DNA from: a virus
Lineage: Duplodnaviria; Caudoviricetes
Virus record (IMG/VR): IMGVR_UViG_2904560550_000001
Location: 32,001-96,000 of that record
Length of the DNA: 64,000 nt
Reading direction: 5' to 3' (one strand)
The notes beneath the pieces were generated by a model, which searched no databases, was not told the origin of the DNA, and worked only from the letters and a program-made list of their open reading frames with translations. The translations under genes and the position numbers were made by a program. Positions within the stretch are counted from its first letter, which is position 1. Each line of letters opens with the position of its first letter. Positions 23,375 to 54,086 of the stretch are shown here, piece by piece.

Positions 23375-23497
23375 AGTCGTTTGGGCAAATAAATCAACTT
23401 AGCTATACAGTGCCCTTTGCCGTCAAAGCAGGGGGCTGCTTTTTAACACAATATACTTTATGAAATGCATATTTTAAACAGAATGGGGATATTTAAA

Positions 23498-23929
23498 ATG
23501 AAAACAACACTTAAAAAATTGTCTCAAAAAGAACTTCATAATCTAATTGGAAGTACTGTTATATTAACAGAAAATCACACAACGATTTCTGGGGACAGAG
23601 TTTTAAAGAAAAAAGGATCTCAAGGGATACTGGTTGATTATCAAATGTTTTGGGGCGAGGCCACCATCCAATTTGGCAAAAGAAATTACAAAGTTGGCAT
23701 GGACATTGTTCAGCTTTTAGAGCAATCAGGGGAAATCGAACAAAAGAGCAGCGATGTATCCAAAAAAGCAGAAACAGAAAAAGCTACTGAAAAGGAGTGT
23801 ATTTTCAAAGAGACAAGAACAGTAGACCAAATTCTTGATGAACATAATGATTATATGACTTTGTATAGAATCTTTAATGATGATGCTTACTTAGAAAAAT
23901 CAAGACAAACGCTACAGCAACTGAAATAG
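23498..23929 (+). CDS. Hypothetical protein
   Basis: ORF with a GGGGA RBS before ATG 23498. Confidence 0.65.
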   Translation: MKTTLKKLSQKELHNLIGSTVILTENHTTISGDRVLKKKGSQGILVDYQMFWGEATIQFGKRNYKVGMDIVQLLEQSGEIEQKSSDVSKKAETEKATEKECIFKETRTVDQILDEHNDYMTLYRIFNDDAYLEKSRQTLQQLK

Positions 23930-23979
23930 TTATAAGTGAATCAAAATAAAACAGCAGTTTAATAGGGAAGGGGAATTAT

Positions 23980-24216
23980 ATGCGTGAATTAGAGTTATTG
24001 CTCTTAGTGATGTGGGCAGAAAATGGTGTTAACGAAGTTTATAAGTATAAAAATAGAATCAAGGCATTTCGTGAACCGTTGGTTAATATCGAGTTGATTA
24101 ATGACTTGAGTTGCGGAGGTATGTTTGCGGACATTGACGACGTTGCAAATCACAAGAACGCTTCGTCAGTAGATTATAAAGTAAGTATCGCAACCTTAGT
24201 TGAAAATAGGAGATAA
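23980..24216 (+). CDS. Hypothetical protein, possibly truncated (same frame resumes after TAATAA and runs to 24315)
   Basis: GGAAGGGG RBS; in-frame continuation DWDFTGRQDCL... Confidence 0.55.
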   Translation: MRELELLLLVMWAENGVNEVYKYKNRIKAFREPLVNIELINDLSCGGMFADIDDVANHKNASSVDYKVSIATLVENRR

Positions 24217-24352
24217 TAAGATTGGGACTTTACTGGTAGGCAGGATTGTTTGGCACTGGAAGGTCAACAGCAGTTTTTTGAATATGTAAAAGAAATTAAG
24301 CCATTAATTAGTTAGGCAACTGAGTAGTTAAAGAGAGGGGAAATATAAATCC

Positions 24353-24517
24353 ATGAAGGTAAAACAATTGATTGATTCATTGCAAACCATGTTGGAGAAA
24401 GGTGAAATAAAGGAGGATACAACTGTGCTGCTCAATACGTATGACGACTGCATGTACGAAGTAGCATGTGTTGAGCCACTGGGAGAGTTTATACAAATTG
24501 AAGCCGAGATTAAATAG
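24353..24517 (+). CDS. Hypothetical 54-aa protein
   Basis: GAGGGG RBS; MKVKQLIDSLQ... start typical of phage small proteins. Confidence 0.6.
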   Translation: MKVKQLIDSLQTMLEKGEIKEDTTVLLNTYDDCMYEVACVEPLGEFIQIEAEIK

Positions 24518-24561
24518 AACAACTTATTAAAAAGATCATAAACAATGAAAGGAGTGCTCAA

Positions 24562-24711
24562 ATGGACATTGAAGTCAAGAAAACAAAAGGTGCATTAGAT
24601 AGTGTCGTACTTGAAATTATAGATAAATCAAAGGAAGAAAGTGATTCGGAGGTAATTGCAGTTCACCAATCTTTTTTTCTGGAACCTCTTCCTCTTGGGT
24701 ACATTGATTAA
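24562..24711 (+). CDS. Hypothetical 49-aa protein
   Basis: AAAGGAG RBS; MDIEVKKTKGALDSV... Confidence 0.55.
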   Translation: MDIEVKKTKGALDSVVLEIIDKSKEESDSEVIAVHQSFFLEPLPLGYID

Positions 24712-24745
24712 TAAAAAAATGAATGTTAAAAGAAAGGTGATTAAC

Positions 24746-24943
24746 ATGAAGAAATGGATTAAATTTGACTACGATGATGGAGCGGAAGTTTTTTATAATA
24801 TAAATAACCCTGACCCCAACGGAGAGATCACTATTGATTTTAAGGTGAAACACTCAGAAGAAGATGTAAAAGAGTTTCAATTATACGATGATGAATTAGA
24901 GCAAGTGTACAATCAATTACAAGAAATGAAAAAGGAGTTGTAA
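24746..24943 (+). CDS. Hypothetical acidic protein
   Basis: AAAGGTGA RBS before ATG 24746. Confidence 0.6.
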   Translation: MKKWIKFDYDDGAEVFYNINNPDPNGEITIDFKVKHSEEDVKEFQLYDDELEQVYNQLQEMKKEL

Positions 24944-25125
24944 TGGGATATAGCAAAGATTTTGCAATCAATCTTGCAAATGAGAGAGCAAACAAACTTG
25001 GGTTTAAGCATTATGTCATTCATAATCCTAAAGATTATAGAGAAATTTTTAATAATACAGGTTTTGTTGTGGCACAGACGGTAAAAGAAAATGAAAAGTC
25101 ATCTATTGTTTACGAAACAGAATGA
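24943..25125 (+). CDS. Hypothetical protein
   Basis: AAGGAG RBS; start overlaps the previous stop. Confidence 0.6.
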   Translation: MGYSKDFAINLANERANKLGFKHYVIHNPKDYREIFNNTGFVVAQTVKENEKSSIVYETE

Positions 25126-25338
25126 AAAGGGGAGATAAAATTGATGAGCTGCTAATCAAGTGTGAAATGCGGGTATAAATGGAATGGCGATGACTTTGAT
25201 GAAAACTGTCCATCATGTGAAAGCGAAAATATCAAAGTTATTGGATGAAACGTTAGTATTCCAAAGCCTATTTTAAATAAAAACACCATTTCATGCTAAA
25301 CAGGATTCGGGCTGCCTACATAAGAACAGCCCTTGCAG

Positions 25339-26431
25339 TTAGCTCGCAATCCTTGTTTTGACTGGTTTGTTTTTCTTGATATTACGTAATTTAAGAGCGG
25401 GTTTTTCCACTATTCTGTACGAAAGAAATGCGATTGCAGCAGTGACAACAATTAGAACTATAATCAGCGGGTAATCTGATAGTGACTTATAAATTCCGGT
25501 GTACAAGAAGATGTTGATAATCACCATATGCCATATGAAAATTCCCATGCTGATATCGTCTAACCTGTTTAGCTGCCACAATATCTTCGGCCCATTGTAT
25601 CCGAACCAGACGATCGCATAGCTCAAAGGGATAAACCATAAAAAACTCCATAGTGTACTGTTTATTGAACTGAGATGTAAAAGGTCAATTTTAAAGAATA
25701 AAAATAAAGTAACAGAAGAAAAAAAATAAAACGATATGCTGCGGCGACTTATTCCATGCCTTTGCCCAGAAGATTCCCAACGTGAAATAAAACATTTGCG
25801 GCAGGAAAGAATGTAAGTATAGGTTACCGATAAGATTCCCAGGCAAGAACTTTAAAGTTACGAAAGAAACCAAAACACTTAAAGCGGAAACAGCAAAAGA
25901 ACAAAGAATCATTTTCTTAAATCCGAAACGTTTAAATAACCAATAAATAGCTGGTAACACTAAGTAAAAGCTAATTTGAACAGGAATTGTCCAAAGTGAA
26001 TCGTTAAGGCGACCTGTGCCAATATGATGGAATATGTCAGGGAAGTATTGAGGGTATAGCACAAGATTGCTCAGAAGCCATATCCAGTAATCTTTTGTAG
26101 TGAATACTGTTAATGAAAGAGCTCCTAGAACAATTAACAGTACCGTGGAGGTAATAGCATAGGTGTATATTGCGGGTGCGATCCTGATAATTCGGCTCCA
26201 ATAAAAATCGGTTATATTGTTTCCTTTAAGCTTGGATCTCTCATAAGAAGTGAAAAGGAAAAATGCGCTTAGAAAAAAGAAGATTGATATACCGGTGTGA
26301 AACATTGCTTTACTCTCTGGAGTATAACCAAAGACAGAAATGTTTAGATCTCTTGTAGCATGACCAACTAACACACATAGAGCAGCAAACAGCCTGATAA
26401 CAAAGAAACAGTTAGAATGCTTTACGTTCAT
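25339..26431 (-). pseudogene. Acyltransferase-3 (OafA/OatA-like) membrane O-acyltransferase, frameshifted in a T8 tract
   Basis: IRLFAA..H, FFFLSAF, SRIIRIAP, SLWTIPVQ and DISMGIFIWH motifs; deleting one base of the tract at 25719-25726 fuses the two ORFs. Confidence 0.8.
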
Positions 26432-26856: not shown

Positions 26857-26901
26857 TAATTTACAAGATGAAAATAAAATTATCGAATGGGAGAGGTCAA
26901 C

Positions 26902-28704: not shown

Positions 28705-28741
28705 ATAAAATCGTACTTTCATAGGGAAAAGAGGAAAAGAA

Positions 28742-29056: not shown

Positions 29057-29120
29057 TTTCGCAGCACTTTGAGAAACAGCATAAAATCATTCTTTTATAA
29101 AAATAGAAAGGGTTAAATTT

Positions 29121-29666: not shown

Positions 29667-29684
29667 CTGAAAAAGAGCATTAAA

Positions 29685-33140: not shown

Positions 33141-33291
33141 AAACCTTGTCTTTATAAAATACGAATTTTAATCAGATAAGGATCCTTCAAAAAATAATTA
33201 GAATAAAAATAAAATAAATACTTGTAATTCTGACAACTCTAATGTATATTATAAACAAGGGAACATTAGTTGGGAAGGGGTGGAGTAACCA

Positions 33292-34431
33292 ATGAATCTT
33301 AAGCAGAAGATTAAGAATGAATGTGAAAAAGACAACCAGCTCGCAGCGAAACTCTCAAAAATAGCAGGGTACGAAAAGGTTAATGGTTTTTACAAATTCA
33401 TCAACACCCCAGAGAAAGAAATGGACAACTTAGGCGGTTTAATTAAGATTGTTAAAAACTTGTTTCCTGATAATGAAGAGCAGCTTCTAAGTGATTACTT
33501 CTTAACATTGGATCCCAACAAAAAATGTGCTAGACAATCTGTTGAATACTCTGATATAAATCAATGGGATTCATTAACTGACAAGATTATTTTAAATTTA
33601 AGTAACTCAAAAAACACAACAAGTCAAGAATGGGGCAACATCTACAACATACATAGAAAGCTATATAAAAACCAAATCTCAATACCAGAAGCAATAAGAG
33701 AGTGTGGAAGATGTAAAGCTCCAGAAATGTCATTTTTCTCAGATGCAATGCTAATGTACAAATACTTGAATATTGGTGAGTTTGGATTGATGAAAAGCAC
33801 TTTAACACTTTTAGATTTTAGAAGCTTGCCAGAAGGATTTATAAAGGATTCGTACAAAAGTAGAGTGTCAATGTTACAAGCGAATATAAGCTTAAATGAA
33901 AATAATTTAATCGAAGCAAGAAAACATTCAAATATTGCAATAATGCAGTCCAATGTGAACCGAATATGTTTCTTTGCGCATCTGACAATAGGGAACACCC
34001 TAATTTTTGAAAACTATGAAGAAGCTATGCTAGCGTATGTTGAGGCAAAGAAGTATGTTCTTAATGATATTCATAAAGAAATGCTAAATGGTGCTCTTTG
34101 CTTCTTGGCTAACGTATGGAACAAGGAAAATTTATGGGTTAACTATGAATCGAATGATATCAAATATCAGCAGCTTAGGGCTTTTTATTACATAAAAAAT
34201 AATAATCTCGACAAGGCAAACGAATTATTGGAAAGCTTATCAAATAGGGATCAAGATGAAAATGAATTAGGATTTTATTTTTATTATAAAGGTTTGATAT
34301 CAAAACAAAAATCTGATTTTTATAAATCAATAACATATTTCAAAAAATCAGATGATAAATATTTTATCCAATTGACAATAATGGAGCTCGAAAAATTAGG
34401 CTGTGATCCGGAGCTGCTAAATTTAATTTAG
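33292..34431 (+). CDS. aimR: Arbitrium peptide receptor AimR (RRNPP family)
   Basis: 379 aa; N-terminal HTH-like region and TPR-like helices; ARQSVEYSD, EWGNIY, LTIGNT; upstream of aimP. Confidence 0.95.
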   Translation: MNLKQKIKNECEKDNQLAAKLSKIAGYEKVNGFYKFINTPEKEMDNLGGLIKIVKNLFPDNEEQLLSDYFLTLDPNKKCARQSVEYSDINQWDSLTDKIILNLSNSKNTTSQEWGNIYNIHRKLYKNQISIPEAIRECGRCKAPEMSFFSDAMLMYKYLNIGEFGLMKSTLTLLDFRSLPEGFIKDSYKSRVSMLQANISLNENNLIEARKHSNIAIMQSNVNRICFFAHLTIGNTLIFENYEEAMLAYVEAKKYVLNDIHKEMLNGALCFLANVWNKENLWVNYESNDIKYQQLRAFYYIKNNNLDKANELLESLSNRDQDENELGFYFYYKGLISKQKSDFYKSITYFKKSDDKYFIQLTIMELEKLGCDPELLNLI

Positions 34432-35694: not shown

Positions 35695-36753
35695 ATGGAA
35701 GCTCAAAAGAAAGCGTCAACACTAAGGGATTATTCAATATTCAACAACATAAATAGGTGGTTTGATGAATTAGATTTAAGAAACAGGGATCAAAAAACTG
35801 GAGAAATTGAAAAGTCTAATACTAGAGCCACGTATGAAAGGCATATAAGAGAGTTTTTCAACCACTATGCTGCCAAGGATATTGAATATTTAACTGAGAG
35901 TGACCTGGCGATCAAGAAGAGTGACCTGTATGATTATCGAAGCCATTTGGCTAAAAATAAAAGTAACTCCAATTCAACAATTAACAACAAGATTGCCGCA
36001 CTGAAAAGTATGATTAAGTATCTTGAATCTGAACATGAGTGTGATGCATCTGTATTTAATTTTAGGCCTCTTCCAACAGAAAAGAACCCAGCAGGCTCTT
36101 TTGAAGGAATATCTGAAGCTGATGAATTTGCTGAGGCAGCGTATGTTACTGAGCGGCAGAACAGATTAATGAAAAAGATGTTTATTTTGTTTAGTGCACG
36201 CACTGGAGGGCGTAAATCAGAGGTGCTTAGAGTTGGGTGGGATGATATTACTTATTCAGAAAAGCATCAATGCTATCTCGTCAACTTTAAAAAAACCAAG
36301 CAAAAAAAGGCTAGACCAGTTGGAATTTCCACAGCTTTTTATGAAGAGTTGTTGCTGTTAAAGCAAGAGTATGGGGAGCATGAACTGTTATTTCATAAGT
36401 TAACAGTTGATTCAATACAGGATATGTGGAATCGCGTATGTAGAGTTATGGGCATTCCAAAAGAAAGAAAGATAACTCCGCATAGTTTACGCAATACTGC
36501 AACAAACTTTTCTTACAGCGTTAATGGTGATATTAAAAAAGTTGCAGCGTTCTCTGGTCACAGCAATATCAATGTTTTGAATGATCATTATTTAAACAAT
36601 GAAAGGGATTATTCTCAAGATCCAGGGGTTTTGGTTGATCAAAAAGAAGACATGTCCTTTTTAGATGATGTTACCTTAGAGCAATATAAAGAATTCTTTT
36701 TAAAATCAGACATGTATATACAGAGTAAACTTAAAATGTTTTTGAACAAGTGA
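35695..36753 (+). CDS. yopP: Tyrosine recombinase family protein
   Basis: SAM-like N-terminal domain; TGGRKSE, HSLR, SGH and HY catalytic set present. Confidence 0.88.
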   Translation: MEAQKKASTLRDYSIFNNINRWFDELDLRNRDQKTGEIEKSNTRATYERHIREFFNHYAAKDIEYLTESDLAIKKSDLYDYRSHLAKNKSNSNSTINNKIAALKSMIKYLESEHECDASVFNFRPLPTEKNPAGSFEGISEADEFAEAAYVTERQNRLMKKMFILFSARTGGRKSEVLRVGWDDITYSEKHQCYLVNFKKTKQKKARPVGISTAFYEELLLLKQEYGEHELLFHKLTVDSIQDMWNRVCRVMGIPKERKITPHSLRNTATNFSYSVNGDIKKVAAFSGHSNINVLNDHYLNNERDYSQDPGVLVDQKEDMSFLDDVTLEQYKEFFLKSDMYIQSKLKMFLNK

Positions 36754-36829: not shown

Positions 36830-38179
36830 GTGTCTGAAGTTTTGTTGACAACGGATAAACTTTATAAGTTAAAAACTGAAATAGAGGGAAGGATTATTGA
36901 TATTAAAGATGATTCCAATATGGTGAAGGAATTAAAAGCTACGATGGCGGAAAAATACAAGGCCCTCCCTGGTTATATCCAAGAAATTTTAAATAATAAT
37001 GATAATAACGTACAGCGTTTAAACGAAAAAGAAGTGTACATTGTTTCAAAAGAGATGTATTCAATTCTCGGGGCGCCAGCTTTAGATCCGTCAAATTATT
37101 TTCCAACCAGATTGGCAAAAGAGCTTGAAGGTGGGAGAGTATTCGCCGGTGAAGAAGTAGTTAAGCTCCCATACAAGTTTAAAAATGTGATTAAAATCAA
37201 AGAGGATAACTATGTCACTTCCATTACTGCCAAAGAACTTAGTGAGTTATATAATAGCTCCATCCTGCAGTACAATTACAACACTCAGCGTGAAGGAAAG
37301 TATATTAAAGGCAGTCTTATTCCTGTCCCTAAAACAAACCCTAAATCAGTTGATGAGATCAAAGAATTGTTTATCAAAGGTGATTTAATTGTATCAATGT
37401 TAACTTTTAACGCTCGTCTTGGAACATCTGATGGTGATGAAGAAGTTGAATATGATCCAAGCACTCAAACCCTCACTGTAACACGCGGAACCTTATTAGA
37501 TGCTCTAGATGGATACCATCGAATTTCAGGTATTGTTAAGGCCATTGCTGAAGTCCCTGAATTGGATCAACCATTCATTTTAAATGTACTCAATTACGAT
37601 GAAGAAAAGGCTAAGGTTCACTTTGCTCAAATGAACACAATAAACCCAGTTGAAAAATCCAGAATTGAAGAATTAGGGCAAAAACGGTATTCTTCAACAG
37701 TTGTCGAGCAGCTGAAATTTAAAAGTGAACTTAAAAATAAAATAAGCCCACAAAGTGAAATTGGTATCGATAGCAATTTTCTTGTGACATATTATACTTT
37801 ATCCGAAGCTATAGACGATGCATTTGAGTTGAAATCTCGAAAAGATGCGTTGAAAATTGCGAAATACCTGGTCGACTTTTTTGATAACCTTTTTTATGCC
37901 TTCCCAGATGAATTTCTTGAAGATGATTTATCGTCCATTAGAAAGCAATCATACATTAATCATAACGTAATGTTTTACGGTTATGTTTATTTGGCCAAGA
38001 AGATGAAGGAAAACAATGTAGAACTAAACAAGCTTGAAAGTATCCTTAATACAATTGACTTTAGTAAGAGCGGAAGAGTGTTTGAAGAATTAGGAAGACG
38101 AAATAATGAAAATCAACTGAAGACTGCTATGAAGAAGAAACTAAAGAGAATATTTTATGATGAAATTGCTGTTGTTTAA
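36830..38179 (+). CDS. yopQ: ParB/DndB-like protein
   Basis: TQRE and LDGYHR motifs; between yopP and yopR. Confidence 0.8.
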
Positions 38180-40518: not shown

Positions 40519-40743
40519 TTGATTAATGAACCAACTAATAATCAAATAAGAACAATGGTTTTAAGGAAATATGCAAAGCTCTTAGCATCATGTGAAAGGT
40601 CTTTACGCAGCATAGATAATGGTGAAATCAGAATGGCAATTGGAGACTTGGATTTTGTTAAAGACAATTTAGAGGAAATACAATACATACTTCGTGATGT
40701 TGTGAATCAGCATGAATATATTGAGGGTAAAAATAAAATGTAA
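40519..40743 (+). CDS. Hypothetical protein
   Basis: AAAGGAG RBS; SPBRE and TTTACA..TATAAT upstream. Confidence 0.6.
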   Translation: MINEPTNNQIRTMVLRKYAKLLASCERSLRSIDNGEIRMAIGDLDFVKDNLEEIQYILRDVVNQHEYIEGKNKM

Positions 40744-40775
40744 GTTTTATCAAGAAAGGTAAAGGGGGAAGAACA

Positions 40776-42335: not shown

Positions 42336-42462
42336 AAAGGGAGGGGAATAAATTGACGAAAAGTGAAGGATGAAAAGTGACTATTGAGCTGTCTCATAAA
42401 ATTAATCGAACCAAATAAAAGATGCATTTCATATTAAATGAGAATAGGGGGAGTAGTTAATA

Positions 42463-42699
42463 ATGGAGACAAAACACGGATTAAGTCAAGGACGGTTAAA
42501 TGCAGCGAAAGATTATACTCGGAGTTTTGTGGAAAGGATCAATAAAATTGAGTTGATGTATCAGCTTTCTGTAAACAAAATGGTGGATGGAGAAAAAGCT
42601 GAGAATTTTATTTCAGGAAATATTAAAGAAATCGAGCGTGATTGGGAATGCTTTAAGAGCTATATTGCACAAAGAGGCGATATGAGAGAATTAGATTAA
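42463..42699 (+). CDS. Hypothetical protein
   Basis: GGGGGAG RBS; bounded by junction motifs. Confidence 0.65.
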   Translation: METKHGLSQGRLNAAKDYTRSFVERINKIELMYQLSVNKMVDGEKAENFISGNIKEIERDWECFKSYIAQRGDMRELD

Positions 42700-42732
42700 A
42701 AGTAAAATTTAAAAGAGAAAGGGAGTTTAAAT

Positions 42733-43329: not shown

Positions 43330-43408
43330 TAAAAAGACTGTTTTAAAGAAAGGATGAGAACCGATAGTCAATTTCAAAAAACTTAGTGATCCTGAATATA
43401 TTAAGCAG

Positions 43409-44273: not shown

Positions 44274-44509
44274 GAATGCAAATCATTATTCGGATCAGAT
44301 TTTAGCTGCAAAACATTAAAATAAAAGGATTATTTCATTGTAAGGAGGAAGGCACATAGGTTATTTAAAGCACATAATTGATACAGCCTGGTTTAACTTA
44401 GTTTGGTTTAGATGGCATCTTGGAGCGGACATAAGCGTATTTGACGGCTGCGGATGGTATACATATAAATATTTAAAGAGTAAAAATAAAATAAATGGAG
44501 GTTATAAGG

Positions 44510-45025: not shown

Positions 45026-45149
45026 TTATATCAACTCCATTAACATTTTATACATTAATTATGAGGTAAATGGAAGATGCTTCGGAAGTGAATAATGGAT
45101 CATAAATAGTTAAAATCGTGATTTTAAACAGAATAGGAGGCCTTGATAC

Positions 45150-45554
45150 ATGGGCTTATATGTAACACACGGAGCATTCGATGGGGCATACTCGTCATTC
45201 AATAATCTTAGAAGATTTTTATTAAAATCAATTGGAGGTAGTTGGCCACCTCATGATAACCAAAAATTTAAGGACGGCTATTGGTACTTTGGTAAAGGCT
45301 ATTCAACAATAACCCATAAGGGACTAACAGAGTTTTTCGGTCATTCAGATTGTGATGGTGTAATTACACCTGGAATGTGTAAAGTTGTTGCTGATGAATT
45401 GGAAGCCATTTTGCCACAAGTAGAGGAATTAGCTAAATCAGAACCATCATATGGTCATATATTGCGTGATGGCGGATGGGTAGCGGTTACAAAGCAGTTT
45501 ATTGAAGGATGTAGACTGGCACATGAAAGAAATGAACCATTAGAGTTTAGATAA
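45150..45554 (+). CDS. Hypothetical phage protein
   Basis: AGGAGG RBS; MGL...HSDCDG; bounded by junction motifs. Confidence 0.75.
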   Translation: MGLYVTHGAFDGAYSSFNNLRRFLLKSIGGSWPPHDNQKFKDGYWYFGKGYSTITHKGLTEFFGHSDCDGVITPGMCKVVADELEAILPQVEELAKSEPSYGHILRDGGWVAVTKQFIEGCRLAHERNEPLEFR

Positions 45555-45586
45555 AATCTTGTTTTTAAACAGATAGGAGGAAACGG

Positions 45587-46102
45587 ATGAATCAAGATAT
45601 TCAGTTTTTAAAAGAGCTTCAGCAAGAGTTGAAAGATCAAGACAACGACTGTCAAGCTGCACCACGTTTCTGGACAGTTGGTGATTATGAATGGGTCGAA
45701 GCTCGAGAGGAAAATGCAGAACGGTATTCTGTATACCTACCATATATTGCTGAAGCATATGTTTTAGATGATTATTTAGAAGATTTAAAAGAAAGTAGTG
45801 AGCTCTCTAAGGAAGCTTTAACAGAGCTGAAAAAGGACGACTTTGACGATCCTATTGAGTGGATTCAAAAATACATTGATGAAGAAGCAGAATTAATTCC
45901 AGAAAGAAAGGTTCACATTGTACGACCGGATACAATGTTTTTGACCAAAGAAGAAGCGAAGAGACACATCAAATTGAATAAGCATCATTACACTTCTGAA
46001 GCACATACTTACGCAATGACAGCTTGGAGAGCACCGAAAGTTGAGCGGTTGCTTAACATACTTGAATCCTTTGATTGGAAATCAATAGAGACTTCTAAAT
46101 AA
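45587..46102 (+). CDS. Hypothetical phage protein
   Basis: AGGAGG RBS; bounded by junction motifs. Confidence 0.75.
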   Translation: MNQDIQFLKELQQELKDQDNDCQAAPRFWTVGDYEWVEAREENAERYSVYLPYIAEAYVLDDYLEDLKESSELSKEALTELKKDDFDDPIEWIQKYIDEEAELIPERKVHIVRPDTMFLTKEEAKRHIKLNKHHYTSEAHTYAMTAWRAPKVERLLNILESFDWKSIETSK

Positions 46103-46424
46103 AAGATAGTTATTATTCAAATACTCAAGGCAGAGCCTACCGCACCTACAATGCCAGCAAAATCAACTAGTGTTGTTACGTTGCTCATAAAGTCAAAAGA
46201 ATTGTTTATTAAAAACATAAAATCAGCCCCTGTAAAAAAATTTAATACTAAGATAAAAAATAATAAGAAGGAGTATTTTATCGCTGGCTTGTTTTTGGTG
46301 TAGGAGCAGCCTTGAATATTCGAATGTATTACTAATATAGCATAATTTTTACAAATAATCCAATTCTGTCTTACGATCGGAGAGTAAAAATAAAATAGTT
46401 ATTTTATAGAAGGAGAGGGTGTAG

Positions 46425-46838
46425 ATGGCATCAGGAGAGCAATTGAAAAGAATGAACGACATAAACGATTTGATTAAGCTTATCGCAAGCATTGATAGAT
46501 GTACTTTCTTCTGTAAGTCAATGAATCGCATAGCGTATTTCAGGTTTAAGAAGAAACTGTTTTTCGTTGATGATTACACGGGAGCTGACGTTTACCCATA
46601 TGAAATGGGATACGGTAGTCCAAACGGCTTTTCACATGGAGGCAACATGTGGCAACTGGTCAACAGTTTTAGAAAGTTCATCATAACAGGGAAATTCGGT
46701 GAGCTGAGGGATTATAAAGAAATATGGGCTTACAGCTATGAAGGATGTATGAAAATCCGTCAGAAGGCAAAAGAAATAGGGTTTATACAGACTGTTGATT
46801 ATCCTTATAGCTTCGATGAATGGATGGAAACTAATTGA
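46425..46838 (+). CDS. Hypothetical phage protein
   Basis: AAGGAGAGG RBS; GFSHGG motif. Confidence 0.7.
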   Translation: MASGEQLKRMNDINDLIKLIASIDRCTFFCKSMNRIAYFRFKKKLFFVDDYTGADVYPYEMGYGSPNGFSHGGNMWQLVNSFRKFIITGKFGELRDYKEIWAYSYEGCMKIRQKAKEIGFIQTVDYPYSFDEWMETN

Positions 46839-46903
46839 TCCATGTACTAAATTTTCATTAAGCTTTAAAGGGCTTGGCATTAAGGAGTTATGTACAGGAG
46901 AGA

Positions 46904-47715
46904 TTATACTCTCCAGGATACGAAGGAAGGTATGCGGAGTTTGCCATGCTTAGTCTTAAATCTGTGCTTAACCTTACATAAGATAGGTTCGATAAATACA
47001 TATTCATCAGATTCAGACTTTACATGTTTCATAGAGTGCAACTTACTTCGTTCCGCGTTCGGCATGAATTCCATAAATCCAGCTGCAGTTCCATCAGGAT
47101 AAGACAGAAGGAATTTAATATCCTTCTTCGTGTAGCCGGTTATGAGAACTTCAGTGTAATCATAATTAATCACTTTAAGCCAATTATGCGAACGTTTATT
47201 GATCTCATAAGGGGAGTTAGCTTTCTTGATTACGATTCCCTCTAAATTCTTTTCTTTGGCCAGGTTGAAGTAAGCAAGACCGTTACCTTGAATTCCTTCG
47301 ATAACACAAACATTTGGATGTTCAGTTCAAGTGAGTTCAGAACTGTCTTACGCTCAGTGAGCGGCTTAGCTGCTATTGACTGACCGTCTTTGTAAATAAC
47401 ATCAAAGACACAGTAAACGATCTTATGGGCTGATTTTTTGGACATGAAACGTTCCATTACAGCTTCAAAGTCAGGAGCACCGCCCGGGGCAGCTACAATA
47501 ACTTCACCATCGAGTACTGTTCCATCTGGGATATCTAAATCCAGGAGTTCAGGAAACTTGCTTGTTACTTCATTATTGTGACGAGTATATAGCTTAATCT
47601 GATTATCAAATTTAGAAAGGATCAGTCTGATTCCATCAAATTTGAGCTCAGTGATATAGTTCTCGTCGTCAAAAGGCTCTTTGATTGAATGCAAAAGCAT
47701 TGGCGATAAAAACAA
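46904..47715 (-). pseudogene. ligB: ATP-dependent DNA ligase, frameshifted near 47325
   Basis: ELKFDGIR motif I, LDGE and VFD in the first ORF; C-terminal OB region with LRIP in the second; one missing base rejoins them. Confidence 0.85.
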
Positions 47716-47784
47716 AATATCACCTCCTACTTAGAACATATTAGCTAAGCGAAGGTGATATATAAAGCGATATGGCAGTGGTAC

Positions 47785-48459
47785 TTAATGGGATTGAATG
47801 AGCTCAGGTGAATTGTTTTTAGGTGAATTCACTAAAGATGAAACCTGGTATGCTTCCATGTCATCAGCATCATAAGGCTGCAGTAAGCTTTGTAGATAAT
47901 CAGGATCAGTATTTTTAGGGTTGAGCCATTCCTTTTCGTTCTCATCAGTAAGGATAACTGGCATCCGATCATGAATGCCTTCCATAAGCTCATTAGGCTT
48001 TGTTGTGATGATTGTGCAAGTGTACAAAGGATTGCCTTGTGGTGTGTTCCACTTTTCATATAATCCGGCAAAAGCAAAGAGATTGGATGATTTAAGCTTA
48101 ATCCGCATAGGAATCTTAGTCTTTGGATCAAGGCGTTTCCATTCATAAAAACTGTCAGCTGGGATGATACAACGTTTGCTTACGAGTGGCTTTCGAAAGC
48201 TGGGTTTCTCGGCCAATGTTTCAGCACGAGCATTAATCATTTTATAGCCGATCTTTTCGTCTTTAGCCCATGGAGGGATAAGACCCCATCTAAGTTTGCC
48301 CAGACGGTTATTAGATCCATCGTTGATGATTGTCAGGATGTTTTGTGAAGGAGCGACATTATAGCTAGGGTGATACTCACCTTCAGGTAAGAATTGATCT
48401 ATGTTGAATTGCTCAATAATGTCATCAAACTCAGAAAATAAAGTGAACCTGCCACACAT
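47785..48459 (-). CDS. yoqW: SRAP family abasic-site processing protein
   Basis: MCGRF N terminus, NARAET, FYEW, HDRMP. Confidence 0.93.
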   Translation of the reverse strand: MCGRFTLFSEFDDIIEQFNIDQFLPEGEYHPSYNVAPSQNILTIINDGSNNRLGKLRWGLIPPWAKDEKIGYKMINARAETLAEKPSFRKPLVSKRCIIPADSFYEWKRLDPKTKIPMRIKLKSSNLFAFAGLYEKWNTPQGNPLYTCTIITTKPNELMEGIHDRMPVILTDENEKEWLNPKNTDPDYLQSLLQPYDADDMEAYQVSSLVNSPKNNSPELIQSH

Positions 48460-48529
48460 GTTCATCATCCTTTAGGGTTTTTGAATATTGTACAGGCTTG
48501 ATACACGAAAATCAAAAAGGAGGAATGTG

Positions 48530-48751
48530 ATGCAGCAGCCAACAGTTGAGGTTAAAGAAGTAGAAGTGTTGATCAGGGGAGTCTGGAGAAAGAAAAAGTT
48601 CACTGACATTCAAAAGGGGCAAACCTTTAAGATTGAGGAGAACGGGAATACAAAGAAGTTCATAGCAAGAACAGATCCTTATTGGGATGATATGTATGAG
48701 ACTTACATAATTGATTTGTTGGATAAAAATAAAATTAGAAGAAGTAAGTGA
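48530..48751 (+). CDS. yoqX: YoqX-like hypothetical protein
   Basis: AAGGAGG RBS; divergent from yoqW. Confidence 0.6.
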
Positions 48752-48810
48752 ACAGAAATCTAGATAAAACAGAGATTTTATAAAAATAAAATTAAAAAAG
48801 GGGAATTTTG

Positions 48811-50004
48811 ATGAGTTATCAATTTGAAAAGAATAAACTGTACGCATATTTAGGTGAAGAGTTAGTTGAAGCACTTAAAAGGAATGAAGCTATTATTGCA
48901 GGTGGGATAATTACAAGTCTATTTAATAATAAAGAGATAAATGATGTGGATATCTATTTTAGAAGTGATAAAAAAGCATGTTCATTCTTAGAAGAGTGTT
49001 GGAATAGCAATGTCTATGTAACTTCACACACTAAAAAAGCCACGCTGTTTATCAAAAAAGGACTAAAGCTACAAATGATCCACTTTAAATTTTTCTCTGA
49101 TGCTGAGTCAATTTTCAATACATTTGATTTTACAGTCTGCATGGGAGCTTTTGATTTTAAGACAGAAGCTTTTACTCTACATGAAGATTTTTTGAAACAT
49201 AACTCGCAGAGAATTTTAAAGTTTAATAGCCAAACTGCTTTTCCAATTGTCTCATTGTTAAGAGTGCAAAAATACACAGATAAAGAATACACAATTTCTA
49301 AGCCAGAATTCATTCGTATTGTGTTAACATGCATGGACTTAACCATTAATACATATGAAGAATTGAAAGATCAAATGGGAGGTATGTATGGGATAAACTA
49401 TGACAAATTGTTCGAAGACGAAAAAGAAGAAGACTTTAACCTACAAGAAGCTGTAGACAAAATTGCGGACATGGTTTTAGACGAAGATTACTTTAAAGAG
49501 CCGGTTAATTTAGAGTTTAATGACTTAGACGATCTTTTAAATGACATTAATAAGAGTCCAGTTATGACGTTGAAGATTAATGGTGATCAGTACAGAATTG
49601 GTCTTGATGGATTTCTAAAAGAATGTGTATCAGCGCCATGTACTGAAATTAAGTTAGATACAAAGGATTTTTTTGATAAAACTAATTTCTATAAATTTGT
49701 AAGAAAACAGAACGGAAAATTGACGAGCTTCTATGACAAGAACTTTGAGTATGTGATTGGAGAAGAAGCTAAAGCGGAAGGAGTTATAAATAGTTGGTCG
49801 AACAGCGGAAGGTTATTTTTTAATGAAAAGGCAGCGATCGGACAATCAACTTACTATGGAAAGGAAGACGGAGTACTTATTGAAGTAAATATTAACGAGA
49901 AGGATTTTGTAGATGTGAAAGATGGTAGAGTTGAGGCCACATCATGTCACGTAATTAGAGAAGTTCCAAAAGAAGAATGGAAACGATACATAAGAGCCAG
50001 TTAA
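48811..50004 (+). CDS. Pol-beta superfamily nucleotidyltransferase (class II CCA/poly(A) polymerase-like head)
   Basis: IIAGG...INDVDIYF and FDFTVC motifs. Confidence 0.7.
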   Translation: MSYQFEKNKLYAYLGEELVEALKRNEAIIAGGIITSLFNNKEINDVDIYFRSDKKACSFLEECWNSNVYVTSHTKKATLFIKKGLKLQMIHFKFFSDAESIFNTFDFTVCMGAFDFKTEAFTLHEDFLKHNSQRILKFNSQTAFPIVSLLRVQKYTDKEYTISKPEFIRIVLTCMDLTINTYEELKDQMGGMYGINYDKLFEDEKEEDFNLQEAVDKIADMVLDEDYFKEPVNLEFNDLDDLLNDINKSPVMTLKINGDQYRIGLDGFLKECVSAPCTEIKLDTKDFFDKTNFYKFVRKQNGKLTSFYDKNFEYVIGEEAKAEGVINSWSNSGRLFFNEKAAIGQSTYYGKEDGVLIEVNINEKDFVDVKDGRVEATSCHVIREVPKEEWKRYIRAS

Positions 50005-50059
50005 ATCTAAAAAAAGGTTTTATAAGGATAAAAATAAAATTAAAAAAAGGGGAATTTTC

Positions 50060-50947
50060 ATGAAACTGATTGGTATTAAAACAAATAACTGTTTTTTGGT
50101 GTCTGACAACATTCAAGGCAGCAGCTATTTCCATAGTCAATTAGAGGGATTGCTTTTCGATGGGAAACGAGCAACTGCAACGTATAAATCAGACTGGTTT
50201 AAGCTAGAAAAGGAACCAAGTGTTATTGAAAAGCAAATGCCACCTATAAAAATTAACCATAGATATGAATTAAAAGAAGGATTCCAGGAATCTGAATTAA
50301 CTCCAAAAGTAATTAATGCTTCTTACATAGGTGAAGAAAGTGAATACTATGAAGTGAAGGGTTTATATGATTTGAAATTTGAAGAAGTCCCACAACAGAA
50401 TCAAAAAATTGAGTTTGAAATGAATGTAATTGAAGAAATTGACGGAGAACTTAAGCTACAAAGTCATAATTTTAACTTGAATTATAACTTACTGGATAGA
50501 ATTCAAACTCATCCAATGCTTCTTGAAACAAAGCCGTGTTACTTGTCCCATGAAGAAAGCTATAAGATTATCAGAAACCATATAAAAGCCAATATAAACC
50601 CTAAATTTGCAAGAATCACGAGTGATTATGATTTCTGTTTTACTGTGGTCAAGGTTCTGGAGCTTTACAAACCTCACGAGTATGTAGTTGATCTTAATGC
50701 AATGTACAAACGGAGAAAGCCTAAACTTGAGAAAAGATTTCAAACAAAGCGGGAAGTTGAAATTTACAATGTTGCACCTAAAGCCTATCAGAGATACCCA
50801 ATTGTAGAGCCTTTTAGTGGTAAAGACGTTGAGGATTTGAAGAGTAATATTAAGAAATTTTTATATGATCTGATGGCTAAAATCAACGAGCCTTTAGTCG
50901 AATGTAAATGCTGCAAAGGAAGAGGGGTTATTTTAAATGAAAATTAA
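50060..50947 (+). CDS. Hypothetical phage protein
   Basis: 295 aa; ITSDYDFCF; C-terminal CKCCKGRG. Confidence 0.75.
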   Translation: MKLIGIKTNNCFLVSDNIQGSSYFHSQLEGLLFDGKRATATYKSDWFKLEKEPSVIEKQMPPIKINHRYELKEGFQESELTPKVINASYIGEESEYYEVKGLYDLKFEEVPQQNQKIEFEMNVIEEIDGELKLQSHNFNLNYNLLDRIQTHPMLLETKPCYLSHEESYKIIRNHIKANINPKFARITSDYDFCFTVVKVLELYKPHEYVVDLNAMYKRRKPKLEKRFQTKREVEIYNVAPKAYQRYPIVEPFSGKDVEDLKSNIKKFLYDLMAKINEPLVECKCCKGRGVILNEN

Positions 50948-51209
50948 ATTGGACAAAGATTACATGGTAAATGAATTGGGACTGCCGGAATCCTCAATTT
51001 TAGAAGAAATCGCTGACACGTCTAGGTGGAGCATTCACTATAGAATTGTGTTCTCATATCAGGGTCGCTTTTTTGAAACTTTCTATAGCAAAGTCGCAAC
51101 TGAAAACCAGTATGAAAGCCCTTGGGAATTTGAAGATCAAGTGGATTGTTATGAAGTGGAGTTAAAAGAAGTGAAGGTTAGAAAATGGATAAGAAAAGAA
51201 TCTCAATAA
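50937..51209 (+). CDS. Hypothetical protein
   Basis: GAGGGG RBS. Confidence 0.7.
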   Translation: MKIKLDKDYMVNELGLPESSILEEIADTSRWSIHYRIVFSYQGRFFETFYSKVATENQYESPWEFEDQVDCYEVELKEVKVRKWIRKESQ

Positions 51210-51242
51210 AAACGATATTTTACAGAAAGAGGAGGAGTGAAA

Positions 51243-51386
51243 ATGTTTACCTGCTTCTGCAACGAATGTGAAAAAGTAATCGAAAAAGATGAAGTTGATT
51301 ATGAGGTTGACGTGGTAGAAGGGCCTTGGGAAGGAGATTGGGAACACGTGCATTTAGAATGCGGTAGTATTGTGTCTTGGATTTAA
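51243..51386 (+). CDS. 47-aa Zn-ribbon-like protein (absent from the ORF track)
   Basis: GAGGAGGAG RBS; CNEC...HLECG; bounded by junction motifs. Confidence 0.6.
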   Translation: MFTCFCNECEKVIEKDEVDYEVDVVEGPWEGDWEHVHLECGSIVSWI

Positions 51387-51499
51387 CTTGTATGTCTAAA
51401 TAAAATCAATTTTTTATTTAAGGGGGTGATAACAATGTGAGTTACCTATGTGATTTGAGTTTTAAGAATAAAACAAAAATAAAAAGGAGTGGTTATTAA

Positions 51500-52324
51500 T
51501 TGTTGAGGATTAAAAACAGAATAGAGGAAATGTTAAAAAAGATTGATGAGGCAGAGAGGGTTTGCTATGACGGGCGCTCCCAACTCTGCATGCATCGTAT
51601 CACTACGAAGCTATTAAAGTGTATCACAGTTAAGAAGACTTTTCCAGTCCTGGTGACTGCTCTGGTTTCATTCCTTAATCCAGTGAGTATTTTAGCAGCG
51701 GACAAGTATCGGAACTTTGAAGAGCTTAAAGCGAATGAATCACCGTTCAATTTCAGCGTATTCTCAAAAGAGCAAGACACTGATGTATTAATTCTTGCTC
51801 CCCATGGAGGTGGTATAGAAGGGGGAACAAGCGAGCTTGCAAAGGAATTAAGCGAAACATACTCTACATATCTTTTTGAAGCTTTAAAGACACCAGGAGC
51901 ATTTGATTTACATTTAACCAGTACGAATTTTGATGAACCACAAGCACTTGAAATGTTGAAGGAACATGAGTTCACATTGTCACTTCACGGTTATGCAAGT
52001 AATGACCAACATGTTTTAGTTGGAGGCACAGATCGGGACAAAGCTGAAGCGATAACAAACACATTAAATAATGCCGGTTACTCTGCAGAGCTTCTTGATG
52101 CAGGAACAAGGTTATCAGGTAGTAGCCCGAATAATGTTGCCAATAAAAATAAAACAGGAAAGAGTATTCAACTTGAGTTAAGCACTGGATTACGTAAATC
52201 AATGTTTAACACCTTTTCTCTAAAAGGACGCTCAGGCACAAGAAATGAGAACTTTTATAACTTCATTGACACTCTGTCACGGTTTATCAATGGGAATGTA
52301 GAAGGGAAGGGTTTGGCAACATGA
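51500..52324 (+). CDS. yoqZ: Poly-gamma-glutamate hydrolase (PghP/DUF867 family)
   Basis: APHGGGIEGGT, HLTSTNFDEP, SLHG, QLELS. Confidence 0.9.
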   Translation: MLRIKNRIEEMLKKIDEAERVCYDGRSQLCMHRITTKLLKCITVKKTFPVLVTALVSFLNPVSILAADKYRNFEELKANESPFNFSVFSKEQDTDVLILAPHGGGIEGGTSELAKELSETYSTYLFEALKTPGAFDLHLTSTNFDEPQALEMLKEHEFTLSLHGYASNDQHVLVGGTDRDKAEAITNTLNNAGYSAELLDAGTRLSGSSPNNVANKNKTGKSIQLELSTGLRKSMFNTFSLKGRSGTRNENFYNFIDTLSRFINGNVEGKGLAT

Positions 52325-54063
52325 ACATGCAGCAGCCCTTATACTATTCTGTTGATGCTCTGGATTGGGGAATTGATGATAAAGGGTCAAATGCTATTGA
52401 AACGACAGAAGGGATAAACCGAGCTTTAAAGTACGCAAGCTCAAAATCATTCTATAAAGTACATATACCAAAAGGTACCTATCTAATTGATGCTGTGAAT
52501 ACATCAAGGCGGCTGCCTGAATTCGGCGGAGGTATTAATATTCCTTCGAATATTGAGTTAATACTTCATCCAGAGGCTGTATTTAAAGTGCAGCCTAATG
52601 ATTCTCAAGGCTATTCCTGTTTCTATATCGGTCAAGCGAGTAATGTAACGATTCGAGGCGGTCAAATTATAGGGGATCGATATGAGCACGATTATTCAAA
52701 GATCGAATCAGTTAAGAAGACACATGAATGGGGATATGGAATTCATGTTCATGGTAGCAGTAATGTGTTAATTGAAAATGTACAGGTCTCTGACTGTATT
52801 GGAGATAACATTTGGATTGCAGCTGATGGGATGATGAACACTTCAGGAACATATACGCCTTCAAAGAATGTAACCGTTCGAAAGTGCACTCTCTTAAGAG
52901 GGAGAAGAAATAACCTAGCTACCAATGGTTGTGAAGGTCTTCTTGTAGACGACTGTGATATAGAGGAAGCTGGGGGAGATACAATTGGGCCGCAATTAGG
53001 AATTGATTTAGAGGGTTTTGGAGAAAACGGAATTAAATACGATCACCCGTATAAATTAACTGTGCGAAACTGCAGGTTTAAAAACAACGGACGTGGATCG
53101 GTTACAGCTCACACAAGTGGTAAGGTAATCATTGAGGGAAACTACAGCGACAATGTTATTTCTTACGGATTCAGCACTGATGTCAGTATTAAAAACAACA
53201 AGATTATCAATGATGCAGAGACTAAGAAATACGGAATTGACTCGGTTGGTGTATCAAGTACGGAATCCGGAAACAGAGTTCAAATTGAGGGCAATACGGT
53301 AAGAGGGTTTGAAATAGGAATTTGCGCAAGAGGAAAAGGCGTGTCGATATCAAATAATACTCTAGAAGGGATAAAGGCATGTCCAATTGCAACACATCAG
53401 GCAGAAGATGTATTAATCACAGATAACAGAATAGAGAACAGTGACTGCATTCAAGTCCAGGTTAGAAACTCAAATGATGTAAGGGTTGTGAACAACAAAG
53501 GGAAAGGAACAATCTCAGCATATGCTGTAAAGATAATGGACTCTACCCGGATCAGTCTAATTAATAATGAATTTGTAAATGTGTACGGAGGAATTTATTG
53601 CGAAAGGTCTCAGTCAGTTCGTTTAAAGGGGAATGACTTATTGTTAAACGGAAGTGGATACGGCATCTTCTGGGATAAGGACTCTTCTGTCTCGCTGCAA
53701 CGAAATGAAATTCATGAGCCTAGAAACGTTGCAATTAAAGGTACTCCTGAGAAGTACAGTTGTCAAATTAGTGAGAATCAGATTTATTTCTGTAAAGCAT
53801 TAATCGCTATTCAACTGACTGGTGGATCAGAACACATGCTGAAGGATAATGAGATTATGTTTAATCGTTCAACAGACCAGGGATATGGAGTGTATTTGGA
53901 GAATACGGACAAAGTACGGCTTGTAAGAAACGATGTGCGGGGAATTGGAGGCAAGTTATTATCTCACCCTTATTGCACAGATAAAGCAAAGAATACAACG
54001 TTAATTCATAACACATATGATAGTGGAACGCTGAAGACAGCAGAAGGAGATATTGTAGTCTAA
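52321..54063 (+). CDS. yorA: Right-handed beta-helix (pectate-lyase-like) protein
   Basis: IPKGTYLI and repeated beta-helix coils; after yoqZ. Confidence 0.8.
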   Translation: MNMQQPLYYSVDALDWGIDDKGSNAIETTEGINRALKYASSKSFYKVHIPKGTYLIDAVNTSRRLPEFGGGINIPSNIELILHPEAVFKVQPNDSQGYSCFYIGQASNVTIRGGQIIGDRYEHDYSKIESVKKTHEWGYGIHVHGSSNVLIENVQVSDCIGDNIWIAADGMMNTSGTYTPSKNVTVRKCTLLRGRRNNLATNGCEGLLVDDCDIEEAGGDTIGPQLGIDLEGFGENGIKYDHPYKLTVRNCRFKNNGRGSVTAHTSGKVIIEGNYSDNVISYGFSTDVSIKNNKIINDAETKKYGIDSVGVSSTESGNRVQIEGNTVRGFEIGICARGKGVSISNNTLEGIKACPIATHQAEDVLITDNRIENSDCIQVQVRNSNDVRVVNNKGKGTISAYAVKIMDSTRISLINNEFVNVYGGIYCERSQSVRLKGNDLLLNGSGYGIFWDKDSSVSLQRNEIHEPRNVAIKGTPEKYSCQISENQIYFCKALIAIQLTGGSEHMLKDNEIMFNRSTDQGYGVYLENTDKVRLVRNDVRGIGGKLLSHPYCTDKAKNTTLIHNTYDSGTLKTAEGDIVV

Positions 54064-54086
54064 ATAAAATTGTAGTTTTAACAAGA

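Follow-up and report, generated by a model that had tools for sequence, protein, structure and literature searches.

The DNA analysed here, referred to as the window, is a 64,000-nt stretch (positions 32,001–96,000) of the IMG/VR virus record IMGVR_UViG_2904560550_000001, the total length of which is 121,624 bp. Judged from its sequence, the source virus is an SPβ-like Bacillus phage; the closest DNA matches were BUCT082, the SPbetaL series, SPBc2 and phi3T, with 85–93% identity in a mosaic covering 15–40% of an 8-kb query. The base composition is AT-rich (GC 0.31–0.39). From approximately 14 kb of the window onward the early and accessory region consists of plus-strand genes, and the arbitrium/sro genes are located at approximately 33–39 kb, including those encoding a YopP-like tyrosine recombinase, a YopQ-like protein with a DndB domain and an MrpR-like protein. 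The present study concerns a short motif found between genes of this region, TAAAA-N6-TTTTA, in which two inverted 5-bp arms flank a spacer of 6 bp. In the initial annotation, about 19 such sites had been described between 23461 and 54080 and interpreted as a candidate integron-like gene-cassette system. The SPβ genes in the region richest in sites include the arbitrium genes aimR/yopK and aimP/yopL and the abortive-infection suppressor gene yopM.

The sites were compared across a data set comprising 58 IMG/VR loci (45 distinct contigs), the source phage and SPBc2. Open reading frames (ORFs) were called, the proteins were clustered into families, and the families flanking each spacer were then tallied. 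Site counts per address, i.e., per spacer sequence, take in overlapping loci of one contig, whereas family and combination counts do not. From 24 public runs only contigs were used, and solely for determining where contigs of relatives break. The sites detected in the window are listed below without an assigned strand; n is the number of sites sharing the address, families are given as upstream × downstream, and cycles refer to the bipartite graph of the two.

23461–23476: one-mismatch site TGAAA tgcata TTTTA, address TGCATA; exact counterpart in SPBc2 at 69424; n = 3 sites, 3 × 2 families.
23947–23962: one-mismatch site TAAAA cagcag TTTAA, address CAGCAG; n = 10 sites, 8 × 5 families.
25678–25693: exact site, spacer ggtcaa, followed by a AGAATAAAAATAAAGT element; address seen once in the data set.
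28706–28721: one-mismatch site TAAAA tcgtac TTTCA, address TCGTAC; n = 32 sites, 6 × 14 families, 1 cycle.
29082–29097: exact site, address TCATTC; n = 24 sites, 8 × 12 families, 2 cycles.
33155–33170: exact site, address TACGAA, 5′ of the aimR-like gene (33292–34431); n = 20 sites, 11 × 1 families (the downstream family being aimR).
40734–40749: exact site, address TGTAAG; n = 46 sites, 1 × 11 families; contigs of runs X4, X7 and X11 break at the site.
42416–42431: one-mismatch site TAAAA gatgca TTTCA, address GATGCA; n = 46 sites, 8 × 11 families, 19 combinations, 3 cycles.
42697–42712: one-mismatch site TAAAA gtaaaa TTTAA, address GTAAAA, its TAA being the stop codon of ORF 42463–42699; n = 42 sites, 12 × 12 families, 3 cycles.
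43330–43345: exact site, address AGACTG; n = 49 sites, 11 × 5 families, 24 combinations, 9 independent cycles.
44322–44337: one-mismatch site TAAAA ggatta TTTCA, address GGATTA; n = 25 sites, 8 × 7 families; TTTCA arm retained in 24 of 25.
45111–45126: exact site, address TCGTGA; n = 12 sites, 6 × 5 families.
45552–45567: exact site, address TCTTGT, its TAA being the stop codon of ORF 45150–45554; n = 4 sites, 1 × 1 families.
46100–46115: one-mismatch site TAAAA gatagt TATTA, address GATAGT, its TAA being the stop codon of the YoqJ-like ORF 45587–46102; exact in SPBc2 at 92394; n = 7 sites, 4 × 4 families.
46391–46406: exact site, address TAGTTA; n = 12 sites, 5 × 8 families; forms the left boundary of a 2.4-kb block also present in SPBc2.
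48765–48780: exact site, address CAGAGA; n = 5 sites, 2 × 4 families; right end of the same 2.4-kb block.
51207–51222: exact site, address ACGATA, its TAA being the stop codon of ORF 50937–51209; n = 8 sites, 4 × 5 families; the address is also found in SPBc2 (95129), flanked there by different genes.
51401–51416: exact site, spacer tcaatt; an alignment segment shared with SPBc2 begins 7 nt ahead of it.
54065–54080: exact site, address TTGTAG; n = 4 sites, 2 × 4 families.
6388–6403: exact site in the late minus-strand region, outside the range first described.

Exact matches to the motif numbered 13 in the window, 12 of them within 23461–54080 and one at 6388. The about 19 sites first described correspond to these 12 exact matches plus seven one-mismatch sites at junctions; all 15 coordinates listed at that time carry the motif, and the exact sites at 25678 and 46391 were absent from that list. 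The seven one-mismatch sites (23461, 23947, 28706, 42416, 42697, 44322, and 46100) were shown to be orthologues of exact sites elsewhere, and one-mismatch matches as a class were not enriched (31 with N6 compared to 21–32 at N2–N11). The stop codons said to be formed by the TAA of the motif at 42697, 45552, 46100, and 51207 were found where expected, with ORFs ending at 42699, 45554, 46102, and 51209, and each of the six single genes reported to be bracketed by two sites is flanked in this way in the ORF table.

The number of exact matches greatly exceeded a matched null, as 100 dinucleotide-preserving shuffles of the window gave a mean of 1.20 (standard deviation 1.15, maximum 5). The 6-bp spacing was as strict as initially stated: when spacers of N0–N20 were scanned in the window, N6 gave 13 matches and each other length, including N5 and N7, gave 0–4. 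No exact sites were present in 54081–64000, which contains replication genes and where the motif had not been noticed before, or in 14001–23460. The same pattern was seen in related genomes, as the whole source phage contains 25 exact N6 sites (other spacers 0–4), SPBc2 contains 34 (0–4 with other spacers) and phi3Ts contains 30. In 23 IMG/VR loci retrieved with a YoqJ-like protein, 137 N6 sites were found compared to 2–12 for other spacers, and among 52 loci retrieved by the YopP family N6 predominated in L027–L063, L065, L067–L069, and L071, with just two sites in L070. Two further loci with a YopP-like gene, L064 and L066, had no site inside ±10 kb; their entire records hold 14 and 19. Five distant large YopP-bearing phage records contained 14, 48, 19, 16, and 24 sites (1, 3, 1, 1, and 0 for a reversed-pattern control). 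Six loci from proviruses of 35–44 kb that share merely the YoqJ-like gene contained 0–1 sites, and the whole records of small non-SPβ proviruses contained 0, 0, and 0, with 2 (control 3) in a fourth, unrelated record, the reversed-pattern control giving 0–3 across the four. The motif belongs to the SPβ-like phage family. The claim that nearly all sites lie at gene junctions was upheld, since 21 of 25 sites in the whole phage and 27 of 34 in SPBc2 were junctional by a rule that covers 18–19% of those genomes.

Two variants of the motif were observed besides these. The distant phage represented by locus L065 (record G002, GC 0.29) contains 48 sites, and in its 20-kb locus the arms lengthen to ATAAAA-N6-TTTTAT in 12 of 14. 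At 50008–50022 of the window, TAAAA aaagg TTTTA has a 5-bp spacer and is followed by the leader that follows the CAGAGA site in other phages; by its sequence, this variant looks like a site that lacks one spacer base.

The spacers were found to be unique within a genome and shared between genomes. Within one sequence no spacer was repeated (0 of 536 addresses), so that the initial statement that the spacer differs at every copy holds within a genome; it does not hold across genomes, where the address is shared. The identical 16-mer recurs at the same relative position in different phages, with both flanking genes replaced in many combinations and with up to 12 upstream and 14 downstream gene families around one address. 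Addresses represented by four or more sites numbered 35, and 23 of these have at least two families on both sides. Distinct combinations of address, upstream family and downstream family formed 26,462 pairs with different neighbours on both sides; the spacer was the same in 648 of these pairs, compared to 21.4 expected from spacer composition. The order of addresses was identical in all 190 address pairs co-occurring in at least three loci. When 106 orthologous junction types were picked regardless of spacer, the spacer showed an identity of 0.863, compared to 0.79–0.80 at adjacent positions and 0.73 in the flanks; identity of the arms was above 0.863, the arms having been selected for. The spacer is thus a position-specific address, unique per genome and conserved per slot across related phages, and it is this property that constitutes the new element described here. 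The literature on SPβ-like phages, in the part covered by our search, which did not reach the 1999 SPβ genome paper, contained no earlier description of the motif or of the address property.

Movement of gene families between slots was also considered and was rejected, as the apparent cases turned out to result from paralogues that had been merged or from addresses differing by point changes. A cassette difference between tcgtga and tcttgt ahead of the YoqJ-like gene is explained equally well by short-homology crossovers in the leader or by a one-base leader polymorphism.

The sites had further been proposed to be crossover sites at gene junctions, and this was supported by the presence of the same 16-bp site beside many unrelated families, in combinations that require repeated recombination within the site. 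For pairs of sites with the same address and two different neighbours, identity was random (approximately 0.3) up to position −8 and from position +30, and was raised only at the general consensus. Pairs sharing only the upstream family lose identity at positions 17/18, and pairs sharing only the downstream family at 0/−1, which places the crossovers inside the 16-bp core. As to whether breakpoints among relatives fall inside the 6-bp spacer, the comparison places the crossovers within positions 1–16. Junctions with a site were also more variable than those without: 47 of 52 had more than one downstream neighbour compared to 47 of 74 junctions lacking a site (odds ratio 5.4, p = 7e-4), and 43 of 51 had more than one upstream neighbour compared to 42 of 67 (p = 0.013).

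Comparison with individual genomes showed such ends directly. A 2.4-kb block with 93% identity to SPBc2 (46387–48780) extends from 4 nt before the 46391 site to the last base of the 48765 site, and other segments matching SPBc2 begin 1–7 nt from the sites at 43330 and 51401 and at a site past the end of the window (genome position 110168). In the SPBc2 record, a TATTCC site (116415–116430; L002 16415–16430) follows yorZ in SPβ and is also present in phi3Ts (107397) with a different gene before it; the homology of many phage records to SPBc2 stops at the last base of this site. Contigs of relatives from runs X4, X7, and X11, which belong to three studies, break at the sites at 40734, 42697, 44322, 45111, 46391, and 48765. 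These sequence comparisons support the view that related phages exchange modules in register by crossing over at the sites.

A logo of 47 sites gave the consensus T-Y-T-R-R-A TAAAA (T/G)NNNN(A) TTTTA W-W-C-A-R-A. The TYT at −5 to −3 mirrors the ARA at +20 to +22, which may be abbreviated TYT-N3-TAAAA-N6-TTTTA-N3-ARA, and this mirror symmetry therefore gives the site an 11-6-11 outline of approximately 28 bp. The near-invariant part is 5 bp per arm, the outer three positions are 57–87% conserved and the three in between are asymmetric. The resemblance to the core sites of tyrosine recombinases that had been pointed out initially consequently holds, with the 11-6-11 outline and an Xer-like gene in the window. 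The predicted RNA folds were weak (−0.1 to −4.4 kcal/mol in all eight sites tested), were no better than those of shuffles in six of the eight and left the two arms unpaired with each other in the minimum-energy fold in three of the eight. In the flanks, Watson–Crick counts equalled the expectation under independence at 11 of 11 position pairs (e.g., 25 observed and 25.2 expected for −4/+21), and the frequent arm variants TTTCA and TTTAA each disrupt a pair. The motif TAA doubles as the stop codon of the upstream ORF at 16 of the 47 sites, those with a scorable upstream ORF, and the SPBc2 record annotates 2 of its 34 sites as stem-loops. A constant spacing between the site and the ribosome-binding site (RBS) was rejected, as the Shine–Dalgarno distance could be as short as 2 nt and as long as 23 nt or more. 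This anatomy agrees with a double-stranded DNA site that is recognized by a symmetric protein and disagrees with an RNA structure. The arms, common to all sites, are probably the protein-recognition element, and we infer that such a protein reads them.

We consider it likely (probability of roughly 65%) that the sites are slot-specific junction or "hinge" sites of SPβ-like phages at which exchange takes place inside the identical core. Each consists of the 16-bp core with weaker mirror-symmetric conservation to approximately 11 bp per arm, placed between a stop codon and the next RBS. When two related genomes meet, either as infecting phage and prophage or during co-infection, exchange inside the core would bring whatever lies left of an address in one phage next to whatever lies right of that address in the other, and both gene order and the arrangement of genes relative to their RBSs would stay intact. 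We infer that identity of the spacer restricts exchange to the same slot.

Two ways in which this exchange may occur are envisaged. An Xer-like tyrosine recombinase, with YopP as the candidate, may act on sites with identical spacers. The 11-6-11 outline, which is that of Xer/dif sites, favours this, and tyrosine recombinases need identical overlap sequences, a requirement that would explain both why spacers are kept per slot and why recombination does not occur among the sites within a genome. It is, however, only a tentative proposal that the 25–48 sites per genome form a natural set of heterospecific tyrosine-recombinase sites in which a putative YopP activity joins only same-address sites of another phage or prophage, and we hold it to be about three times less probable than its negation. 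Alternatively, annealing or homologous recombination of phage or host may make use of the 16–28 bp of identity, the first job of the motif being something else, e.g., binding of a regulator. Against this alternative, 16 bp would be very short for homologous exchange, and neither the common palindromic frame nor a conserved spacer without consensus would be required by it. The gene encoding the candidate enzyme is the following.

35695–36753, plus strand: gene for a YopP-like Xer-type tyrosine recombinase of 352 amino acids, putative reader of the sites.

The YopP-like protein matched Pfam Phage_integrase (5.7e-14) and contains a SAM-like N-terminal domain. The profile of the YopP family matched structures of XerC-like, XerA, XerH, and XerD proteins (4.6e-14 to 3.3e-9), and the R, K, HxxR, H, and Y motifs of the protein from the window were present in the alignment to Xer structures; the roles of the catalytic residues in YopP are those that we assume by analogy to XerD and Cre. 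The match of the family profile to IntI4 was partial (9e-9 over 62 residues). A YomM-like protein was rejected as a better candidate, as it showed a weak N-terminal SAM-like match and was present in three of the five distant records. Between the YopP gene and that of the MrpR-like repressor lies the gene for the YopQ-like protein (36830–38179), which matched Pfam DndB (DNA-sulfur modification-associated) with E = 2.7e-16.

Several observations weigh against exchange at the sites, or against YopP as the enzyme that performs it. Because sites were grouped by identical spacer, exchanges between unlike spacers are invisible, and the dissimilarity of spacers within a genome was not significantly above chance (P = 0.15 and 0.08). 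Broken junctions without an exact site numbered 25 of 33 between SPBc2 and phi3Ts and 39 of 47 between the source phage and phi3Ts, the enrichment of sites at broken junctions of whole genomes was modest and significant in two of six directed comparisons, and in the family analysis 47 of 74 junctions lacking a site were also variable. The initial claim that the sites explain the mosaicism of accessory genes is supported as regards the greater variability of junctions with a site, and not supported as regards the many mosaic junctions without one. Laboratory hybrids of phi3Ts and SPβ switch parent within long identical tracts, and four switch intervals of 41–89 nt contain no site; ordinary homologous recombination therefore works without sites. 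Four ends of identical tracts in hybrids match sites (hybrid coordinates 29375, 104632, 106012, and 119045), but owing to the length of the parental identity tracts hybrid crossovers are not assignable to sites. For 15 of 16 hybrid recombination sites, a location where the parents are homologous has been reported (Dragoš et al., preprint); the single non-homologous joint, described there as "following yosA", is near the SPBc2 116415 site and might bear on the proposed role of the sites. As to the enzyme, YopP of SPβ carries a Lys at the second catalytic Arg (Arg-II), the YopP proteins of the source phage and SPβ are only 33% identical and yet the arms are the same, and strong conservation is limited to 5 bp per arm.

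Of the other explanations, the one that deserves most weight, although we regard it as rather unlikely, is that the sites are operators or roadblocks comparable to stoperators, bound by a dimeric phage DNA-binding protein over the early accessory genes, with recombination as a mere by-product of the sole conserved sequence. By analogy to MrpR, the binder could then be a non-catalytic Xer-like YopP. The palindromic arms, the fixed spacing and the approximately 25–48 copies per genome, located almost without exception in short stretches between genes, are what such operators would look like; the Lys at Arg-II of SPβ YopP and the many junctions that exchange without any site point the same way. 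However, operator function leaves unexplained why a spacer without consensus is better conserved than adjacent positions (0.863 compared to 0.79–0.80) and why it persists through repeated replacement of both neighbours. The SPβ repressor MrpR reportedly has a tyrosine-recombinase fold, which would suit an operator, but its operator in SPβ is the 15-bp element SPBRE at ten promoters detected by chromatin affinity purification sequencing (ChAP-seq; Kohm et al., 2023; PMC10516654), and the ten peaks reported there are at SPBRE promoters and none at the 34 sites. Identity of the site with SPBRE was rejected, since the motif of nine of the ten MrpR-bound SPBc2 promoters, approximately ACAAAAAATATGTATA (about ACAAAWAATATGTATA), does not contain the site. 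The polymerase YonO was likewise considered. It is reported to initiate one late operon at a single start upstream of yonK (Forrest et al., 2017), and on these grounds it is not the reader of approximately 30 mostly early sites, so that the site was rejected as a YonO promoter.

The remaining explanations are far less probable than the operator. The integron analogy of the initial annotation, in which each promoterless unit of RBS and ORF carries its own site and moves as a circle between any two sites, draws on the single genes bracketed by two sites, on the tyrosine recombinase gene in the window and on the three ORFs (48808–50004, 50060–50947, and 50937–51209) that lie between CAGAGA at 48765 and ACGATA at 51207, a point at which yoqX and yoqY of SPBc2 are separated by just one site, ACGATA. 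It was nevertheless contradicted by the behaviour of the sites, which are positional, keep their spacer per slot and do not travel with a cassette: addresses follow position and not gene family (AGACTG 11 × 5, TGTAAG 1 × 11, and TACGAA 11 × 1), address order is fixed in all 190 pairs, the majority of families are tied to a single address or its point variants, and neither a foldable attC-like structure nor an attI-like platform was found, although no search was aimed at an attI-like primary site. In addition, unlike spacers disfavour recombination by tyrosine recombinases, and the spacers within a genome differ. We therefore consider this analogy very improbable. Equally improbable is that the motif acts at the RNA level between cistrons, by forming a small hairpin, by directing processing or by signalling translation. 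The constant position between stop codon and RBS, the TAA serving as stop at 16 of 47 sites and the stem-loop annotation of two SPBc2 sites speak for it, but the weak folds, the lack of covariation past the arms, the pair-breaking arm variants and the variable Shine–Dalgarno distance do not, and the address property is left unexplained; the RNA-processing alternative mentioned initially is accordingly not favoured. Finally, in an AT-rich genome in which TAAAA and TTTTA are frequent words (366 and 275 copies in the window), the motif might be an artefact of AT-rich intergenic DNA, formed by a TAA stop with an A-run and by a T-run before the RBS. This is refuted by the spacer scan, as the excess is confined to N6 in each SPβ-like genome examined, and other Bacillus proviruses of similar composition show no excess; its probability is practically negligible.

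A second repeat, (T)TTAGA-R-TAAAAATAAAAT, was detected in 17 plus-strand and 4 minus-strand copies in the window and in 27 plus-strand and 4 minus-strand copies in the whole phage. Its copies in the window are located at the following positions.

Plus strand, (T)TTAGA-R-TAAAAATAAAAT repeat: 16686, 19055, 19134, 22713, 22802, 25698, 33203, 34941, 40437, 40727, 44480, 46384, 48723, 48780, 50028, 55663, and 56101.
Minus strand, (T)TTAGA-R-TAAAAATAAAAT repeat: 13649, 13869, 13935, and 34284.

Several copies are located directly 5′ of a σA-like −35/−10 pair, as for the aimR-like gene (33203) and the sro operon (34941), and others directly 5′ of an RBS; the copies at 40727 and 46384 share sequence with the left arm of a site. 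The repeat may act as an operator or in the manner of an UP element. A screen of junctions for shared 14-mers, sorted into classes by eye, yielded pieces of the sites, the TAAAAATAAAAT element and SPBRE. Junctions with at least three different neighbours on each side in several loci gave longer runs of overlapping 14-mers, two words of which did not occur in the window. For the AAAATATGTATA core, which represents the SPβ form of SPBRE, four scattered matches with no more than one mismatch were found in the window, none of them at promoters; the operator used by the MrpR-like repressor of the source phage is therefore probably another sequence.

It has long been asked how phage genomes can exchange unrelated genes at gene boundaries and yet remain collinear, and the answer of the modular theory is the presence of "linkers" at junctions. 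The junction elements described here can be listed, have a common frame with a position code and occur in SPβ, a genetically tractable phage of Bacillus subtilis, which makes the linker hypothesis testable. If a phage recombinase does join only same-address sites, the phages would possess a built-in form of recombinase-mediated cassette exchange, by which accessory genes for defence and counter-defence are shuffled in register and the genome is not scrambled, and the fast turnover of accessory regions in SPβ-like phages would be explained. If an enzyme reads the sites, a new use of heterospecific recombination sites would have been found in nature, and the set would be a ready toolbox of orthogonal sites.

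Compared to known systems, the sites resemble the attC and attI sites of integrons in marking junctions of promoterless ORFs with a tyrosine recombinase encoded nearby. attC sites, however, travel with the cassette and recombine as folded single strands, whereas the SPβ-type sites are positional and unfolded. A likeness is also seen to Xer/dif sites, which have an 11-6-11 organization, and to the heterospecific lox and FRT variants that serve in cassette exchange: the inverted arms, the asymmetric 6-bp spacer, the footprint of approximately 28 bp, the apparent pairing of partners with the same spacer, the coexistence of different spacers without rearrangement and an Xer-like recombinase encoded nearby are all shared. 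A chromosome contains a single dif site, whereas 25–48 different sites, with 5 bp per arm strongly conserved, are present per phage genome.

In mycobacteriophages L5 and Bxb1, the repressor binds stoperators, which are asymmetric, have a length of 13 bp and follow the direction of transcription. Like these, the SPβ-type sites occur genome-wide as dozens of short copies in short intergenic regions; unlike these, they have a palindromic core, and the master repressor MrpR maps to SPBRE instead. SPBRE itself is a repeated intergenic element of the same phage family, and a site is found 11–92 bp from SPBRE at the aimR, yorE, and yosX promoters, but SPBRE differs in its sequence, in being identical from copy to copy and in having approximately ten copies, which are associated with promoters.

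The modular theory of phage evolution of Susskind and Botstein reportedly placed "linker" or boundary sequences at module junctions of lambdoid phages. The idea of short conserved junction sequences that guide in-register exchange between related phages is the same; the SPβ-type sites go beyond it in having a common palindromic frame and a slot-specific code, which makes them enumerable and statistically testable. Together with these linkers, the functionally nearest counterparts of the sites are the promoter-early stem-loops (PeSLs) of T4-type phages, which have been reported to mediate modular shuffling (Arbiol et al., 2010; PMC2839356). PeSLs are likewise short conserved intergenic sequences among non-essential variable genes, at which recombination shuffles modules between related phages, and the SPβ-type sites share with them the location at borders of variable non-essential genes and the coincidence with replacement breakpoints. 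PeSLs differ in being repeated regulatory cassettes with a σ70-like promoter and a terminator stem-loop; they recombine with one another inside the same genome, from which mini-circles result. The SPβ-type sites are 16–28 bp in length and form no stable stem-loop, inspection of the 16 bp by eye, without a scan, revealed no promoter hexamers, and each spacer is unique per genome, so that a site seems to exchange only with its counterpart slot in a second genome. With their slot-specific code, the SPβ-type sites would therefore favour exchange between genomes over exchange within one.

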